Shown: positions 2,651 to 24,950 of the stretch, piece after piece
Layout: each line of letters begins with the position of its first letter
How positions within the stretch are numbered: the first letter of the stretch is position 1
From: an archaeon GW2011_AR10
GTDB taxonomy: Archaea; Iainarchaeota; Iainarchaeia; Iainarchaeales; GW2011-AR10
Assembly (NCBI GenBank): GCA_000830275.1
Contig: CP010424.1
Coordinates: 270,001-302,000, forward strand
Direction of reading: 5' to 3'
DNA: 32,000 nucleotides
Notes under the pieces: model-generated
Seen by the model: the letters and a program-made list of their open reading frames with translations, nothing else
Databases searched by the model: none
What the model was told of the DNA's origin: nothing
Position numbers and translations under genes: made by a program

Positions 2651-4201
2651 TCAGTGCCTGAAATGCCTTATGCCAGTGAAAACAAGCGAGATTTTGGCCT
2701 TGTTTGCTGCTTTAACTACTTCCTCATCCTTTACGCTGCCGCCCGGCTCAATTAGCCCTGCCACGCCTGCTTTTGCAGCTAGCTCAATGCTGTCAGCGAA
2801 TGGAAAAAAACCATCTGAAGCAATAACCGAGTTTTGGGCTCTTTTTCCTGCTTTTCCTATTGCAATTTTTACTGCTTCAACCCTGCTTGTCTGGCCTGCG
2901 CCAATGCCTATTGTCTGGTTTTCTTTAGCTAAAACAATTGCATTGCTTTTAGCGTGCTTTGCAACCCTCCAAGCAAAAAGCATTGAGGAAAGCTCCTTTT
3001 TTGAGGGCTTTTTCTTTGAAACAAACTTGAGGTCTCTGGAGGAAATGCCTTTGGTGTCGCGTTCCTGAAGCAGCAGGCCGCCTACAACTTTTTTGAAGGA
3101 GAACTCGTCAGAGTAACTGAATTGCCGGTCAAGGCCGTTCACTCTTAGAACCCTCAAATTTTTTTTCCTTTTCAAAATATTTAATGCAACTGAATCAAAG
3201 TCAGGTGCAATGACTATTTCATTGAAAAATGAGGTTATTTTTTTTGCAGTTGCAGTGTCGCATTTCCTGTTAAATGCAATTATGCCGCCGAAAGCGCTGG
3301 CAGGATCGCATGCAAGCGCTTTCCTGAAAGCATCAGAAACTGAATTAGAGGAAGCTGCGCCGCACGGGTTCCCGTGCTTTATTATTACGGCTGCTGGTTC
3401 CCTGAATTCTTTCACTAACTCGATTGCTGCGTCAGCGTCAAAAATGTTGTTGAAAGAAAGCTGTTTTCCGTTCATCACTTCAGCTATTGCAATGCAGGGC
3501 TCTTTCACTGCCGGCTCTTTGTAAAAAGAGCCTTTCTGCTGGTAGTTTTCCCCATACCTTAAGTCCATTATTTTTTCAAACGAGGCAGTGAATTTTTCAG
3601 GAAAACTTTCAGTGGAAAACTTTCTCCAGAAAAACTGGGAAATAATGGTCTCATAAGCTGCTGTTTCACTGAATGCTTCTACTGCAAGCCTTTCTCTGGT
3701 GGAAAAGCTTATTCTGCCATTGCTTTGAATTAGTTCATCCATAAGTGCAGCGTATTGTTTTGGGGAGCTTACAACTGCAACCCTTTCAAAGTTTTTTGCA
3801 GCAGCGCGAAGTAATGCAACTCCGCCGATGTCAATTTTTTCAATTATGCTTTTCATATCCTCTGTTTTTGAAGCGGTTTCCTTGAATGGATAAAGGTTCA
3901 CTACTATCAAATCAATCGGCTTTATTTTGTGCTTTCTGAGTTCAGCTTCATCAGCTTTTGTCCGGCGTGAAAGAATTCCGCCAAAAATTTTTGGGTGAAT
4001 GGTTTTAACCCGTCCTCCTAAAATTTCCGGAAAAGAGGAAATGGACTCGATTTTTTTTGCCGGAATCCTTGCCTTTTTGAGCAATTCAGCTGTTCCAGAG
4101 CTGGCAATTATTTCAACGTTGAACCTGTTTAGGATTCTCGCAAGCTCTGCTATTCCTTGCTTGTCTGAAACTGAGATTAGGGCCCTTTGGAGTTTAACCA
4201 C
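2651..4201 (-). CDS. purH: Bifunctional AICAR formyltransferase / IMP cyclohydrolase
   Basis: Motifs ALISVSDKQG, KTIHPKIFGGIL, VVNLYPF, DIGGVALLRAAAKNF, IIKHGNPCGAA, SAFGGIIAFN, GIGAGQTSRVEAV, ASDGFFPFADS, EPGGSVKDEEV and the terminal FTGIRHFRH. Length 516 aa. Confidence 0.95.
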   Translation of the reverse strand: MVKLQRALISVSDKQGIAELARILNRFNVEIIASSGTAELLKKARIPAKKIESISSFPEILGGRVKTIHPKIFGGILSRRTKADEAELRKHKIKPIDLIVVNLYPFKETASKTEDMKSIIEKIDIGGVALLRAAAKNFERVAVVSSPKQYAALMDELIQSNGRISFSTRERLAVEAFSETAAYETIISQFFWRKFSTESFPEKFTASFEKIMDLRYGENYQQKGSFYKEPAVKEPCIAIAEVMNGKQLSFNNIFDADAAIELVKEFREPAAVIIKHGNPCGAASSNSVSDAFRKALACDPASAFGGIIAFNRKCDTATAKKITSFFNEIVIAPDFDSVALNILKRKKNLRVLRVNGLDRQFSYSDEFSFKKVVGGLLLQERDTKGISSRDLKFVSKKKPSKKELSSMLFAWRVAKHAKSNAIVLAKENQTIGIGAGQTSRVEAVKIAIGKAGKRAQNSVIASDGFFPFADSIELAAKAGVAGLIEPGGSVKDEEVVKAANKAKISLVFTGIRHFRH

Positions 4202-8788: not shown

Positions 8789-8806
8789 TTAATCTTCCAG
8801 GAATGA

Positions 8807-8817
8807 TTTTTTAAAAG
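8807..8817. promoter_or_regulatory. Central TATA-like box (ttttttaaaag) in the 48-bp purA/purE divergent intergenic region
   Basis: The palindromic core ttttaaaa (8809-8816) is centred 24.5 nt from both the purA GTG (8788) and the purE ATG (8837). Confidence 0.45.
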
Positions 8818-8836
8818 AATCCTTCCTAATCATATC

Positions 8837-10689: not shown

Positions 10690-11013
10690 TTATTTTGCCG
10701 CTACGAGCAGGTTTTTCTCTTTAATTTGTTCAAGTTGTTTTGCAAGCAGGCCGTCATATAACTCTATTAGTTTTTTTACTTCTTCATTTTTTTGGTTGAG
10801 TTTGAATAGTTTTGCTCGGCCGATTTCTCTTGTTTCAACAACTATTTTTTGCTTTATTAGTCTTGGCAGGATTCTGTGTATTGTGCTCCAGCCAATTCCT
10901 GCATTTTTTGCCATGTCTGTAAGGCTGTAGTCAAATTCTCTGCCGGTGATTAAAAACTCTAAGAGCCTTGTGGTCGGATTGTCACCCAAAAAGTCCAAGA
11001 ACAAATTAACCAT
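10690..11013 (-). CDS. Small winged-helix DNA-binding protein, likely co-transcribed with the sigma-like gene
   Basis: TTRLLEFLITGREFDYSLTDMAKNAGIGWSTIHRILPRLIKQKIVVETREIGRAKLFKLN has a wHTH pattern (helix-turn-helix plus beta wing). ATG at 11013 is preceded by GTGG; the track start at 11043 is TTG. It lies 34 nt downstream of the sigma-like ORF stop, on the same strand. Confidence 0.6.
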   Translation of the reverse strand: MVNLFLDFLGDNPTTRLLEFLITGREFDYSLTDMAKNAGIGWSTIHRILPRLIKQKIVVETREIGRAKLFKLNQKNEEVKKLIELYDGLLAKQLEQIKEKNLLVAAK

Positions 11014-11047
11014 AAAACCACTTAAATAAATTACCACAAACAACTAT

Positions 11048-12262
11048 TTATTTTTTCGGTCTTTTCCTATGTTTCCCAAAAACCGATTTCAGCGTTTGAT
11101 TGTTCCCTTTTCTTGCATATTCTCTGATTCTTCTAATAGCTCCACTAATTCTGACTATTGGAATCAACGCCGCATCAGCAGCTTCTACTTCGCTTAAAAT
11201 TCTTGGGCCAAGAAAAGTAATTCTGATTATTCTTTGCTCAAGGCCGGAAAAGTTTTCTATGGTTTTTGTTAACTCTTTTCTCTGCCTTAAGGTAAGAGTC
11301 CTTTTTGAAATATCTCCCGGCTGTATGCTCCCGGATTGAGTTGGAATTACTTCTCTCAATTCTGGAAACTGTTTTACCATGTTTACTCTGGCATCAGCCC
11401 AAATTCTTCTGGTTCCTTCCCTTGTAATTCCAAGCCTTGATGCAAAATATTTCACAGTTTTCGGATTTTCTCCGGGCAGAAGTGCCATTTCCATCAACTG
11501 TTTCTGTTTTCCTGATAGGCCTGCAACTGCTTTCCTGATTAGTTTCCTGTGCTCTCGCTCTTCAATGTAATCAAATTGGGGCTTTAATGGTTTTCTTTTG
11601 TCTCTGATGATGTCATGGAACAATTTATCACTTGTCTGTGCTGAATGGTCAATCGGCACTGGAGCATCCAAAGACAGCGGTTCCCTTATATCAGCAACAT
11701 AAACTCTGGTTGAGTGCGTTGGGCGAGATACCCTGTTAGGGTTTTTAATGCCGGATTTTATTGCAAATGCCCTGAATTCTTTCGCTGACCTTGCAGCCCT
11801 TCCATGTTCTCTTTCAAACTGCTGGGCTAAACCTGTGTCTCTTCTCCTCTCCTCAACAGCGAAAGGCAAGGTAAGATGGGGCCCCTCAGTATCAACTATT
11901 CTTCTGACATGGTTTCTGATTGATTTTTCAACATAGGTTGTGAATGCCGCGCCTTTGTTCGGTTCATAATCGTCTATTATGTAAGTTAAAAGCCGTTCGT
12001 TTGCGCTCTGAATTAGGTCTTCAAGCGAAATTGCGGAAGAAAATTTCTTTCCCCTTAAATGATAAACTTTTGTCCATTGCCTTCCGACAATTTGAATAAT
12101 GAAAGGAAGTACTCCCTCGGCAATTCTTTTCTTTAGCTCTGTTTTTTTTGCAGGATTTCTTGTCTTTTTATATTCTCTAAATAGTTCTGCATACTCCTGC
12201 TTTGAAGGAATTGTGATTCTGCGTAAATCCCTGCTGTACTGCTTTAAGGGGCTTTGGCCCAT
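11048..12262 (-). CDS. Sigma-70 family (RpoD-like architecture) protein with an extra C-terminal region-4-like module
   Basis: Compared by eye with E. coli RpoD recalled from memory. Region 1.2: SPLKQYSRDLRRITIPSKQEYAELF vs [28 protein letters not shown]. Region 2: LEDLIQSANERLLTYIIDDYEPNKGAAFTTYVEKSIRNHVRRIV vs [43 protein letters not shown]. Region 3: LTLPFAVEERRRDTGLAQQFEREHGRAARSAKEF vs [34 protein letters not shown]. Regions 3.2/4: PLSLDAPVPIDHSAQTSDKLFHDII...LSGKQKQLMEMAL...ASRLGITREGTRRIWADARVNMVKQF vs [22 protein letters not shown]...LTAREAKVLRMRFG...GKQFDVTRERIRQIEAKALRKLR. Confidence 0.8.
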   Translation of the reverse strand: MGQSPLKQYSRDLRRITIPSKQEYAELFREYKKTRNPAKKTELKKRIAEGVLPFIIQIVGRQWTKVYHLRGKKFSSAISLEDLIQSANERLLTYIIDDYEPNKGAAFTTYVEKSIRNHVRRIVDTEGPHLTLPFAVEERRRDTGLAQQFEREHGRAARSAKEFRAFAIKSGIKNPNRVSRPTHSTRVYVADIREPLSLDAPVPIDHSAQTSDKLFHDIIRDKRKPLKPQFDYIEEREHRKLIRKAVAGLSGKQKQLMEMALLPGENPKTVKYFASRLGITREGTRRIWADARVNMVKQFPELREVIPTQSGSIQPGDISKRTLTLRQRKELTKTIENFSGLEQRIIRITFLGPRILSEVEAADAALIPIVRISGAIRRIREYARKGNNQTLKSVFGKHRKRPKK

Positions 12263-12393
12263 CCCGTTTTCCTTGCTTTTGGAAGCGCTGAAGGCATAAT
12301 TACAATAATTAGGCTTGTTGTTATATTTAATTCTGATTATTCGGGGAATGGGAGCAGTGACTTTGAATCATCAATTCTGGGAAAAAATCGGCT

Positions 12394-22094: not shown

Positions 22095-22931
22095 TTAAAA
22101 GCAGGTTCCGACTCCGACAGTGAAGGCATCCCTTATGCCTGGAGCAAAGCCCATAATTATAATGAACACCTTAATGAATCCAGCCATGTTTTTGTCCTTC
22201 ACTTCCTTGTCAACATAGTAAATTATCAAAAGTGCAAGTGCAACTTTAACTAAAATAAATGCTGCAGGGAACACTCCAAGTATTGCCTCGCTGAGCGGGT
22301 GCTGTTCGCCGCAGTTGAGAAACTGCGTCGCAATGAAAGTGGCGCTCCCGTCAAGGGCTTGGCCTGCAACCGCGAGCAAGTTTAATCTATCTGTAACCAG
22401 CTGCGGCCTTATTTTTTTGGCAATTAAATAAGAAATTCCAACAGCTACTGCGGTTAATATTATGATTGCAGTGAAGTACTGCCATGCAACAAATTGTATG
22501 AAGTCAAACAAAACAAAGGGCGCGGCAAGCAGAGTGCCGATTGCTCCAAAAACCTTTATTGTTTCCTGCTTTATTTTTTTGGCCAGCCAGATTGAAAAAA
22601 TAAGTGCAGCTATTGCAAGCAGGCCAACCGCAACGTAAATGCCGGGCGTGACAGTGAGAAACCCTGGTTCGAATGGATTGCATGAGCGCCCGAGTATTTT
22701 CAGGTCCTCGAGGATGCGCAGTGTTGAGCCAAACAGCACGAATGCTAGAACTGCTAAACCGAACCTGAAATCAAATCTAATGCCTCGCTTGTTGAAGAAA
22801 GGGAAAACAAGGTAGAACGCAATTCCGATCAGGATTATTCCATAAGTAAGCGTGTTCACAAAATTGTAGCCAGAGTAATTGCAGATTGGGTCCAAGAAAA
22901 ACTCTTGAATGAATGGAGGGAAACCTACCAT
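22095..22931 (-). CDS. DUF63-like polytopic archaeal membrane protein
   Basis: About 7 predicted TM helices. QALDGSATFIATQFLNCGEQHPLSE resembles the DUF63 family as I recall it. I prefer the ATG at 22931 (MVGFPPF...). The 104 upstream codons in the track ORF are antisense to trm5 and look non-coding. Confidence 0.65.
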   Translation of the reverse strand: MVGFPPFIQEFFLDPICNYSGYNFVNTLTYGIILIGIAFYLVFPFFNKRGIRFDFRFGLAVLAFVLFGSTLRILEDLKILGRSCNPFEPGFLTVTPGIYVAVGLLAIAALIFSIWLAKKIKQETIKVFGAIGTLLAAPFVLFDFIQFVAWQYFTAIIILTAVAVGISYLIAKKIRPQLVTDRLNLLAVAGQALDGSATFIATQFLNCGEQHPLSEAILGVFPAAFILVKVALALLIIYYVDKEVKDKNMAGFIKVFIIIMGFAPGIRDAFTVGVGTCF

Positions 22932-22965
22932 GTATTTAAAATTAAATGAACATTTTAATATTGTT

Positions 22966-23853
22966 ATGGGTTCTGGCAGCATTGATGGAATTAAAAATAA
23001 GCAAAAGCCGCATTCACTCAAAGAGGCGCTGAAGGGAAAGCTTACAAAAAAAGAGTTTGCGCATTTGCGGACTTCTTTTGACATGCTCGGCAACATTGCA
23101 ATTATTGAAATCCCTTCGGAGCTTGTAAAAAAAGAGAAAATTATTGGCAAAGCCCTTTTGGAAGTCAGCCCGAATATTGAAACAGTGTGCAAGAAAACAG
23201 GCGCGCACAAGGGAAAATTCAGGGTGGAACCAGTGAAAATCATTGCAGGGAAAAAGAACAGGACTGCAACTTACAGGGAGTCAGGCTGCACTTTCAGGGT
23301 TTCTCTTGGAAAGGTTTTTTTCTCCCCGAGACTTTCAGCAGAGAGGCTCCGCATTGCAGGAGAAATAAAGAAAGGGGAGATTGTTGCGGTGCTTTTTGCC
23401 GGCGTTGGGCCTTTCCCAATAGTGTTCGCGAAAAACTCGGAAATGAAGCAGGCTTTTGCAGTTGAACTGAATCCCGCTGCTTTTGAGCAGTTGAAGGAAA
23501 ACGTTGAGCTGAACAAGGTGCAGGAAAAAGTTGTTCCCTTGCTTGGGGATGTTAAAAGAGTTGTTCCGAAAAAGCTGAAGGGAAAATGTGGCAGGGTTGT
23601 GATGCCTCTTCCTAAGGGCGGGGAGCTTTTCTTGCACGAGGCTTTTTTGTGCCTGAACGGCGGAAAAGGAATAATCCACTTTTACGATTTTGTCTCGCGC
23701 GAAAAAGGCTTTGATGAAGCGGTTGAAAAAATCAAGAACGCAGCGGAAAAGGAAAAAAAGAAAGTGAAAGTGCTGCTGAAAAGAAAAGTCAGGGATTACT
23801 CTCCTGACACATTCCAAGCGGTGATTGACTTCAGGGTTTCTAATGCCGGCTAA
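22966..23853 (+). CDS. trm5: tRNA (guanine37-N1)-methyltransferase, Trm5/Met-10+ family
   Basis: FDMLGNIAIIEIP, FRVSLGKVFFSPRLSAER, SAM motif VLFAGVGPFPIVFAK, ELNPAAFEQLKENVELNKV, VVMPLPKGG. I prefer the ATG at 22966, with TATA-like tatttaaaattaaat at 22933-22947. Confidence 0.85.
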   Translation: MGSGSIDGIKNKQKPHSLKEALKGKLTKKEFAHLRTSFDMLGNIAIIEIPSELVKKEKIIGKALLEVSPNIETVCKKTGAHKGKFRVEPVKIIAGKKNRTATYRESGCTFRVSLGKVFFSPRLSAERLRIAGEIKKGEIVAVLFAGVGPFPIVFAKNSEMKQAFAVELNPAAFEQLKENVELNKVQEKVVPLLGDVKRVVPKKLKGKCGRVVMPLPKGGELFLHEAFLCLNGGKGIIHFYDFVSREKGFDEAVEKIKNAAEKEKKKVKVLLKRKVRDYSPDTFQAVIDFRVSNAG

Positions 23854-24308: not shown

Positions 24309-24950
24309 ATGAATATAATCCTTCTCGGCCCGCCGGGAACGGGAAAGGGCACGATTGCGCAGTTCATTGAGAAAACTTTTGGCTTAAGGCAGATTTCAAG
24401 CGGTGACCTGCTCAGGGAACAGGTGAAAGAGAAAACGACTATTGGAAAAAAAGTTGAGCCCATAATGAAGGAAGGAAAGCTTGTTCCCGATGAGATAATA
24501 TTAAAATTAATCACCAGAAAAGTCAGGCAGCTAGGCAAAACCGGGTTTGTTTTGGACGGCTTTCCGCGCAACCTAGAGCAGGCGAAACTGCTTGATGAAA
24601 TGCTAAAAAAAGAGAAAATCGGGATTGATATTGCGCTTGAAATAAGTACGGATGAGGAAGTTATAGTGAAGAGGTTGAGTGCAAGGAGGCAGTGCAGGAA
24701 ATGCGGTAAAATCTACGGCATTGACATAAAACCAGAAAAGGAAGGCGTTTGTGATAACTGTGGCGGAGAGCTTTTCATGAGGGAAGATGACAGGCCGGAA
24801 GTGATAAAATATCGCCTGCAGCTTTATAATGAGCGAACCCAGCCACTGATAGACTACTACCTTGAAAAAGAAAAGCTTAAGTCGATTGATGGCAACATGC
24901 ATCTTGAGGAAATATTTGACGGCGTGCTTAAACTTCTGGGGAATAAGTGA
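24309..24950 (+). CDS. adk: Adenylate kinase (long bacterial/eukaryotic type with a Cys4 zinc lid)
   Basis: P-loop GPPGTGKGT, ISSGDLLR, GFVLDGFPRN, lid CRKCGKIY...CDNCGGEL, RxDD motif REDDRPE. Confidence 0.93.
   Translation: MNIILLGPPGTGKGTIAQFIEKTFGLRQISSGDLLREQVKEKTTIGKKVEPIMKEGKLVPDEIILKLITRKVRQLGKTGFVLDGFPRNLEQAKLLDEMLKKEKIGIDIALEISTDEEVIVKRLSARRQCRKCGKIYGIDIKPEKEGVCDNCGGELFMREDDRPEVIKYRLQLYNERTQPLIDYYLEKEKLKSIDGNMHLEEIFDGVLKLLGNK

Follow-up and report, generated by a model that had tools for sequence, protein, structure and literature searches.

A complete, highly divergent sigma-70-family protein resident in the chromosome of archaeon GW2011_AR10 (Diapherotrites), possibly domesticated as an accessory transcription regulator

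Sigma factors are textbook initiation factors of bacteria and of bacteria only. Complete sigma factors in Archaea were reportedly announced in the abstract of Rinke et al. in 2013, and the presence of such proteins in DPANN archaea has been a curiosity ever since, one whose importance depends on a function being assigned to them. A 2018 review credits Rinke and colleagues with the first description of archaeal sigma factors (PMC6126073). A subsequent study by Castelle et al. in 2021 reported sigma-70 genes across DPANN genomes with mis-binning excluded, found no anti-sigma factors for these proteins and called their mechanism unclear (PMC8204110). Here, we describe a sigma-70-family gene in a 32,000-nucleotide stretch of archaeon GW2011_AR10 (hereafter AR10; contig CP010424.1, positions 270,001 to 302,000), which we call the window. 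The gene had been picked out by an earlier reading of the DNA sequence (the original prediction), whose remark that sigma-like genes had been noted in DPANN archaea is correct.

The 404-residue AR10 protein is a complete, highly divergent member of the sigma-70 family of bacterial ancestry. It scores 47.3 bits over residues 61-295 against the NCBIfam sigma-70 superfamily model TIGR02937, above the curated cutoff of 42.9. Two Pfam models are recognizable but fall short of their gathering scores: Sigma70_r2 reaches 21.8 bits over residues 68-121 (gathering score 24), and Sigma70_r4 reaches 14.9 bits over residues 246-292 (gathering score 24.1). The Pfam scan returned no match to Sigma70_r1_2 or Sigma70_r3, and the isolated N-terminal, middle and C-terminal pieces matched nothing in Pfam. 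In a phmmer search of the PDB, solely sigma factors matched, with colinear alignments to RpoS over residues 73-292 and to Staphylococcus aureus SigA (8x6f_E) over residues 4-291. An AlphaFold2 (AF2) model with a predicted local distance difference test score (pLDDT) of 73 was compared with the PDB by Foldseek, and the top 50 chains were all group-1/2 sigma-A, sigma-S or sigma-70 chains from holoenzymes (E ~1e-7, 300-376 aligned columns), showing the sigma fold and domain order. The protein also matches PHROG family 351 of phage sigma factors (E 3e-13), and its UniRef entry, placed in Candidatus (Ca.) Iainarchaeum, is already named "Sigma-70 family RNA polymerase sigma factor". The original prediction had claimed sigma-70 homology from region 1.2 through region 4.2 and had proposed the four Pfam models as the check. 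The homology stands on TIGR02937, the colinear alignments, the fold and the SLDAP motif of region 3.1/3.2, which is found in the protein; the Pfam part held in a sub-threshold form for regions 2 and 4, whereas for regions 1.2 and 3, whose own Pfam models give no match, the support comes from the colinear alignments and the fold.

The sigma gene is stably resident in a Diapherotrites (DPANN) chromosome. The proteins of the window are exact matches to those of GW2011_AR10 (Diapherotrites, Ca. Iainarchaeum), whose genome is a single contig of 1,241,428 bp and in which the sigma gene lies among genes for a ZIP protein (AJF59823.1), a winged-helix regulator (AJF59821.1) and PurC (AJF59820.1). The neighbours thus serve purine biosynthesis and metal transport, and no gene for an integrase, a capsid or another mobile-element function lies nearby. 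The gene order ZIP-sigma-winged helix-purC recurs in at least seven independently assembled contigs (ENA, JGI and NCBI GCA_013332025.1) and in one Logan contig. The tetranucleotide composition of positions 1-13.3 kb correlates with that of the rest of the window at 0.98, and the codon usage of the sigma gene is unexceptional apart from a third-position GC content of 0.35. TATA-like boxes stand 27-35 nt before the start codons of genes on either side of the sigma gene, a pattern of leaderless archaeal transcripts. The window also encodes the diphthine synthase Dph5 (TIGR00522, 211 bits against a cutoff of 114) together with DUF357, DUF63 and Trm5b-like methyltransferase genes. Thus, the contig is archaeal and carries archaeal-style TATA promoters, as had been predicted, and a misjoin to bacterial DNA, which the original prediction had named as a danger, is effectively excluded by the repeated gene order, the tetranucleotide correlation and the flanking TATA boxes; the 1.24-Mb contig likewise speaks against a chimera.

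Close relatives of the protein are few. Among 1.84 billion representatives, phmmer found 796 matches at E<=1e-3, of which the strong ones are two fragments from the same lineage, 99% (P0134) and 67% (P0135) identical, and all others are at most 32% identical. Two proteins that are 24-27% identical nevertheless align end to end with the AR10 sigma, namely P0140 (MEK6958242.1), from a metagenome-assembled genome of an unclassified "archaeon", and P0288, a sigma-70-like protein encoded by Ca. Iainarchaeum andersonii SCGC AAA011-E11 (contig AQRS01000043.1) and one of those archaeal sigmas whose first description goes back to Rinke et al.; it was recovered by a profile search, and its locus also carries PCNA, RpoL and archaeal PheRS. 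A scan of species representatives found the subfamily in just these two other archaeal genomes. Since P0288 comes from Ca. I. andersonii, the AR10 sigma is already known in kind within its own phylum, as the existence of archaeal sigmas has been since 2013. On viral contigs, the matches are confined to sigma-2, with 31-40% identity, and all lack the C-terminal domain. The original prediction had considered a recent bacterial transfer; this suggestion is not supported, given the ceiling of 32% identity outside the lineage, the unexceptional codon usage and a C-terminal domain in common with I. andersonii. A recent transfer from an identifiable bacterial donor was likewise ruled out by the absence, in the same search, of anything above 32% identity outside the lineage.

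The functional residues were compared column by column over 147 aligned sigma-70-family sequences, with E. coli numbers assigned to the AR10 positions by homology, in the established numbering. Region 2.2 keeps D82, L83, I84, Q85, N88 and L91, of which D82, Q85 and N88 are the equivalents of D403, Q406 and N409; the equivalents of E407, G408 and G411 are changed to S, A and R, the glycines being present in 139-142 of the 147 relatives. In regions 2.3 and 2.4, F107, T109 and Y110 are kept, the Y430 equivalent included. However, the pair of tryptophans that melts the −10 element is lost: W433 and W434, which are W in 100 and 134 of the 147 relatives, respectively, are replaced by K113 and S114. 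In addition, the Q437 equivalent is N117 and the Y425 position is A, leaving Y430 alone of the −10 recognition and melting set Y430, W433, W434 and Q437. Region 4.2, which lies in a domain scoring 52.9 bits against a sigma-4 profile built for this analysis, keeps T280, R281, E282 and R285 (T583, R584, E585 and R588 in E. coli), and thus all the −35-reading residues R584, E585 and R588. The N-terminal helices of the model (residues 5-14, 21-33 and 37-69) have pLDDT values of 82-90. Over 20 kb of the window, promoter-like sites of the sigma-70 type show no enrichment, with 16 found against 22.5 +/- 4.9 in shuffles.

Beyond sigma-4, the protein continues into a further domain, residues 325-396, which we read as a duplicated, degenerate sigma-4 (sigma-4') and which had previously gone unremarked. 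AF2 models it as four to five helices (pLDDT ~80), and Pfam recognizes no family in it. In an hhalign comparison, a profile of the three archaeal C-termini matched the sigma-4 profile with a probability of 90% (E 1.7e-6, 49 columns), the match spanning region 4.1 and the helix-turn-helix (HTH). The direct BLASTP comparison of sigma-4 with the AR10 C-terminus was not significant (E 0.73), the likeness becoming informative only via profile-profile comparison, and the recognition-helix positions of sigma-4' do not show the R/E/R pattern. The C-terminal core of AR10 matches P0140 by BLASTP (E 3e-5), and a core of the form FSG..R.I...FL.P..LS..E.A is common to AR10 and the I. andersonii clade; with this common domain, the homology of the archaeal proteins goes beyond generic sigma similarity. 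Weak extra sigma-4.1-like segments are also seen in the C-terminal tails of two metagenome sigma-70-family matches, P0147 (700 aa) and P0185 (498 aa), so tandem sigma-4-like repeats may not be unique to the archaeal proteins. The features of the locus are collected in Table 1.

Table 1. Features of the sigma locus, in window coordinates unless a comparison contig is named (aa, amino acids; CDS, coding sequence; ORF, open reading frame)
Feature	Residues	Position	Strand	Basis or remark
Sigma-70-family protein CDS		11048..12262	(-)	404 aa; AJF59822.1 / QT03_C0001G0321, archaeon GW2011_AR10
Region 1.2/2.1-like helices	4-70	12053..12253	(-)	SigA 8x6f_E alignment from residue 4
Regions 2.2-2.4	78-126	11885..12031	(-)	Pfam Sigma70_r2 and column statistics
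Sigma-3-like helical domain	132-191	11690..11869	(-)	RpoS colinearity; AF2 helices 132-153, 160-169, 183-191
Region 3.2-like linker, PLSLDAP motif	193-230	11573..11686	(-)	Alignment; AF2 confidence low
Sigma-4 HTH	229-298	11369..11578	(-)	Sigma-4 profile; weak Pfam Sigma70_r4
Sigma-4', putative degenerate second sigma-4-like domain	325-396	11075..11290	(-)	hhalign, BLASTP, AF2
TATA-like box TTAAATAT		12323..12330	(-)	Upstream of sigma gene; predicted promoter element
Upstream ATG		12295..12297	(-)	Starts 416-aa form (MPSALPK...) in most strain variants and the 67% allele
G-run		12258..12260	(-)	GGG in AR10, GGGG in variants; length sets 404-aa or 416-aa start
A-run AAAA		11591..11594	(-)	AAA in L026/L027; frameshift to 237-aa and 146-aa ORFs
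AATAAATA, predicted remnant of conserved winged-helix gene TATA box		11045..11052	(-)	By-eye alignment with L009-L012
MarR/ArsR-type winged-helix regulator CDS		10690..11013	(-)	107 aa; AJF59821.1; ATG start
Palindrome and TATA		L009 4886-5000; L010 4886-5000; L011 4867-5000; L012 4876-5000		Upstream of winged-helix orthologs

The sigma gene sits behind a predicted archaeal-type TATA promoter, the TTAAATAT box of which lies 33 nt from the upstream ATG and 68 nt from the AR10 start; a TATA-to-ATG spacing of −27 to −35 likewise recurs at six further genes in the window. In most strain variants, an extra base in the G-run moves the start 12 codons upstream: GGGG, present in 14 other contigs, opens the 416-aa form from the ATG at 12297, whereas the GGG allele of AR10 puts this ATG out of frame, in a 17-codon dead end, so that the 404-aa form begins at the 12262 ATG. 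A second length change, a 1-nt deletion in the A-run, was found in L026 and L027, one ENA and one JGI assembly that are possibly from the same sample, and may be a real pseudogene allele. These two contigs differ from AR10 by ~5% within sigma (65 substitutions) and by ~1% in the flanking ZIP and winged-helix segments, and the ratio of nonsynonymous to synonymous substitution rates (dN/dS) between L026 and AR10 is 0.62 over the sigma gene and ~1 in regions 2.2-2.4 and sigma-4'. Another contig, L016, matches the window at 99-100% identity over 9.6 kb and then falls to 68-76% inside the sigma gene; its truncation there is probably an assembly or scaffold breakpoint and was not accepted as a pseudogene, P0284, with the same allele, continuing past that point. 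The 67% allele (P0135/P0284) differs from the N-terminal half of the AR10 gene with dS ~0.90 and dN ~0.22 (dN/dS 0.24) and with an ordinary, transition-rich substitution spectrum; it is therefore an ortholog that has diverged under constraint and came in either through recombination or through co-assembly. Hypermutation of the type produced by diversity-generating retroelements was ruled out for this allele by the same spectrum, which is not adenine-specific, and by its dS. Across strains, the sigma gene appears as a local island of divergence, with 68-92% identity between flanks of 99-100% (L016 9600-10188 against window 12320-11734; L026 against 12241-11242), and the N-terminus of the L026 variant looks like a mosaic of AR10 and the 67% allele, which suggests recombination among co-occurring lineages. 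The open reading frame is intact in more than 20 contigs. Taken together, the allele, start and dN/dS results point to a real, long-retained and weakly constrained gene that is probably dispensable at the strain level.

We give about an even chance to the reading that the AR10 sigma is a domesticated, dispensable DNA-binding accessory regulator and not an initiation factor of the bacterial style. On this reading, the protein would no longer melt promoters as a bacterial initiation factor does and would have been domesticated as a dispensable accessory regulator of transcription. DNA would be bound through the retained sigma-4.2 HTH, possibly aided by sigma-3 and sigma-4', and the clamp coiled-coil of RNA polymerase may still be contacted via the partly kept surface of region 2.2. 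Several observations weigh against it. Group-4 (extracytoplasmic function, ECF) sigmas lack the tryptophan pair and still melt promoters, so the loss of this pair is no proof of lost sigma function. When AR10 is aligned with the I. andersonii clade, conservation is highest in region 2.2, which could mean that polymerase binding has been retained. That clade lacks the R/E/R residues of sigma-4.2, and the DNA-binding mode may thus not be family-wide. The two assemblies that carry the frameshift allele may share one sample. Finally, in a neighbour-joining tree (283 columns, 147 sequences), the three archaeal sigmas fall in a 10-leaf clade, and their exact monophyly appears in 16 of 200 bootstraps; the distances, ~1.7, are saturated, which makes the tree uninformative on archaeal sigma ancestry.

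The gene might instead be functionless today, the decaying remnant of a horizontal transfer long ago, a reading we regard as unlikely. The start made polymorphic by the G-run indel, the internal frameshift of L026/L027, the between-strain dN/dS of 0.62 (~1 in regions 2.2-2.4 and sigma-4'), a divergence of sigma ~5 times that of its flanks and the absence of sigma beside the winged-helix gene in the other Diapherotrites examined are all as decay would have it. However, the intact frames, the dN/dS of 0.24 at dS ~0.9 against the 67% allele and the archaeal promoter in place speak for maintenance of the gene, and five-domain colinearity with I. andersonii at 25% identity implies long retention.

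The clamp coiled-coil of the archaeal polymerase subunit Rpo1N (A') is homologous to the clamp helices of bacterial beta-prime, and in bacteria the region 2.2 helix is the determinant of core binding. The AR10 sigma could be a genuine polymerase-associated factor whose sigma-2 docks on the Rpo1N coiled-coil and which recruits or modulates the polymerase at a subset of promoters, with or against TFB, TFE or Spt5; we consider this rather improbable. At ~25% overall identity, no invariant stretch shared by AR10 and the I. andersonii clade is longer than the region 2.2 helix, DLIQ..NE.L. The surface residues D82, Q85 and N88 are retained, and the protein keeps its full multidomain architecture, region 3.2 linker included, rather than a lone HTH. 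The dN/dS of the N-terminal half is consistent with such a function, as is the lack of TFE-beta in DPANN archaea (PMC7289017). On the other hand, the residues E407, G408 and G411 of this very region are replaced, the glycines being nearly universal among the relatives, the melting tryptophans are lost and the distribution in Diapherotrites is very patchy, while the frameshift allele and the between-strain dN/dS speak against a core role. A working hybrid can also be imagined, in which a bacterial sigma scaffold would dock through region 2.2 on the archaeal clamp coiled-coil and replace or compete with TFE/Spt5, TFE-beta being absent, and the HTH domains of sigma-4 and sigma-4' would lead the archaeal polymerase to promoters of their own. 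This would amount to sigma-assisted archaeal transcription; we find it more doubtful still.

A sigma borne by a virus or mobile element, or an effector aimed at the RNA polymerase of a bacterial partner, is very improbable. The PHROG 351 match would suit it, and the mosaicism of alleles suggests recombination. However, the neighbours are purine-biosynthesis and metal-transport genes without any integrase, capsid or mobile-element gene, the viral-contig matches are confined to sigma-2 and carry no C-terminal domain, no signal peptide is evident, and the known hosts of DPANN are archaea; a mobile-element or viral origin was set aside on the first two of these points. Least of all do we credit an assembly or binning artefact that would make the gene, or the whole 1-13 kb segment, bacterial: a bacterial-looking purH bienzyme, a bacterial-type adk and the sigma gene itself might invite the idea, which the shared junctions in seven contigs from various assemblers and samples and on the 1.24-Mb genome, the tetranucleotide correlation, the leaderless-type TATA promoters inside the segment and the explicit exclusion of mis-binning for DPANN sigma genes by Castelle et al. 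(PMC8204110) leave practically no room for.

Having set these alternatives beside the accessory-regulator reading, we turn to the neighbouring gene. A 107-aa winged-helix open reading frame lies downstream of sigma as predicted, its ATG 34 nt past the sigma stop on the same strand, and AF2 predicts for its product (pLDDT 86) a winged helix of the MarR/ArsR type that continues into a long C-terminal helix. The original prediction had joined the two genes in a regulatory module, and this is not supported. The winged-helix protein has 88 homolog clusters at 51-100% identity, and those with a named source are all from Diapherotrites or an unclassified archaeon. No sigma gene was found by tblastn near its orthologs (51-90% identical) in four other Diapherotrites genomes (L009-L012), where the ortholog has its own promoter in all four and stands beside a divergent, conserved 90-aa gene in three. 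Nor is a winged-helix gene present at the sigma loci of the I. andersonii clade (L013-L015), where the neighbours differ. The adjacency on which a search for syntenic orthologs with the same partner had been proposed is therefore not kept in related archaeal genomes outside the AR10 lineage, and a conserved sigma-winged helix operon was ruled out. The 90-aa gene (L009 4613-4885, L010 4613-4885 and L011 4594-4866, all on the minus strand) belongs to no Pfam family, and tblastn found no homolog of it in the AR10 window.

Upstream of the winged-helix orthologs, a 16-bp palindrome (GGTATATTAATATACC-like) is shared ~10 nt before the TATA box; its probable role is that of an autoregulatory operator, and AR10 lacks it. 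In AR10, the remnant of the TATA box, AATAAATA, and the sequence downstream of it are retained, the sigma stop codon TAA (11048-11050) falls within AATAAATA, and the 3' end of sigma stands in place of the palindrome and the 90-aa gene. The AR10 winged-helix gene most likely keeps its own promoter. Since L009-L012 show the palindrome and the 90-aa gene instead of sigma, the adjacency appears specific to the AR10 lineage; judging from gene order, the winged-helix protein is an unrelated, separately conserved Diapherotrites regulator beside which sigma arrived only there.

Elsewhere in the window, the adenylate kinase at 24309-24950 (+) passes the cutoff of the bacterial-type model PRK00279, and the PurH bienzyme (fused AICARFT/IMPCHase) at 2651-4201 (-) is bacterial-looking, which fits the reported bacterial gene content of DPANN. 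The purA (-) and purE (+) genes diverge across a 48-nt spacer (8789-8836) with a TTTTAAAA-type box 27 nt before each start, a compact bidirectional archaeal promoter of near-palindromic symmetry. The mechanically called open reading frames of DUF63 (22095-23243, -) and Trm5 (22909-23853, +) overlap by ~335 nt on opposite strands, and since the DUF63 match starts only at residue 111, the DUF63 gene probably begins at an internal codon near 22913.

The AR10 locus adds little to the existence of archaeal sigmas; its value is that of a clean test case. It offers a single 1.24-Mb contig, many strain alleles, a defined archaeal promoter, a clear pattern of residues retained (partly in 2.2, and in 4.2) and lost (−10 melting), and the sigma-4' domain. 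If it proved true that a sigma engages the Pol II-like archaeal polymerase, this would bear on the evolution and interchange of initiation systems.

We note the following likenesses to and differences from known systems. First, the sigma of I. andersonii (P0288) and its relative P0140 are the nearest: P0288 is likewise a Diapherotrites sigma, and the domains follow the same order, 1.2, sigma-2, sigma-3, sigma-4 and sigma-4'. The tryptophan pair is lost in both, to H-Y there and to K-S in AR10, and the Pfam r1_2 and r3 models match neither these proteins nor the AR10 sigma. However, their genes have a Lon-like ATPase upstream and metallo-beta-lactamase/NTP-transferase downstream, whereas AR10 has ZIP, the winged helix and purC, and the sigma-4.2 R/E/R kept in AR10 is absent there. 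Second, the bacterial group 1/2 sigmas RpoD/SigA and RpoS (7vf9_F, 8x6f_E and 5ipl_F) share with the AR10 protein the fold and the domain order, as well as the motifs DLIQ..N..L (region 2.2), F-T-Y (2.3), SLDxP (3) and T-R-E..R (4.2). In contrast to them, the AR10 sigma is at most 32% identical, has lost the equivalents of W433/W434, Y425 and Q437 and has its region 2.2 glycines replaced, carries the extra sigma-4' and lacks region 1.1. Unlike the hosts of these bacterial sigmas, archaeal hosts use the archaeal transcription apparatus. Third, family fam00359 of Castelle et al., found mainly in Woesearchaeota (PMC8204110), resembles the AR10 sigma in being of the sigma-70 class and encoded in DPANN genomes. 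Finally, sigma is functionally analogous to archaeal TBP/TFB, and TFE, like sigma-2, binds the clamp coiled-coil and aids open-complex formation (PMC7289017 and general knowledge), whereas Pfam, NCBIfam and Foldseek place the AR10 protein with bacterial sigma and not with TFB/TFE.

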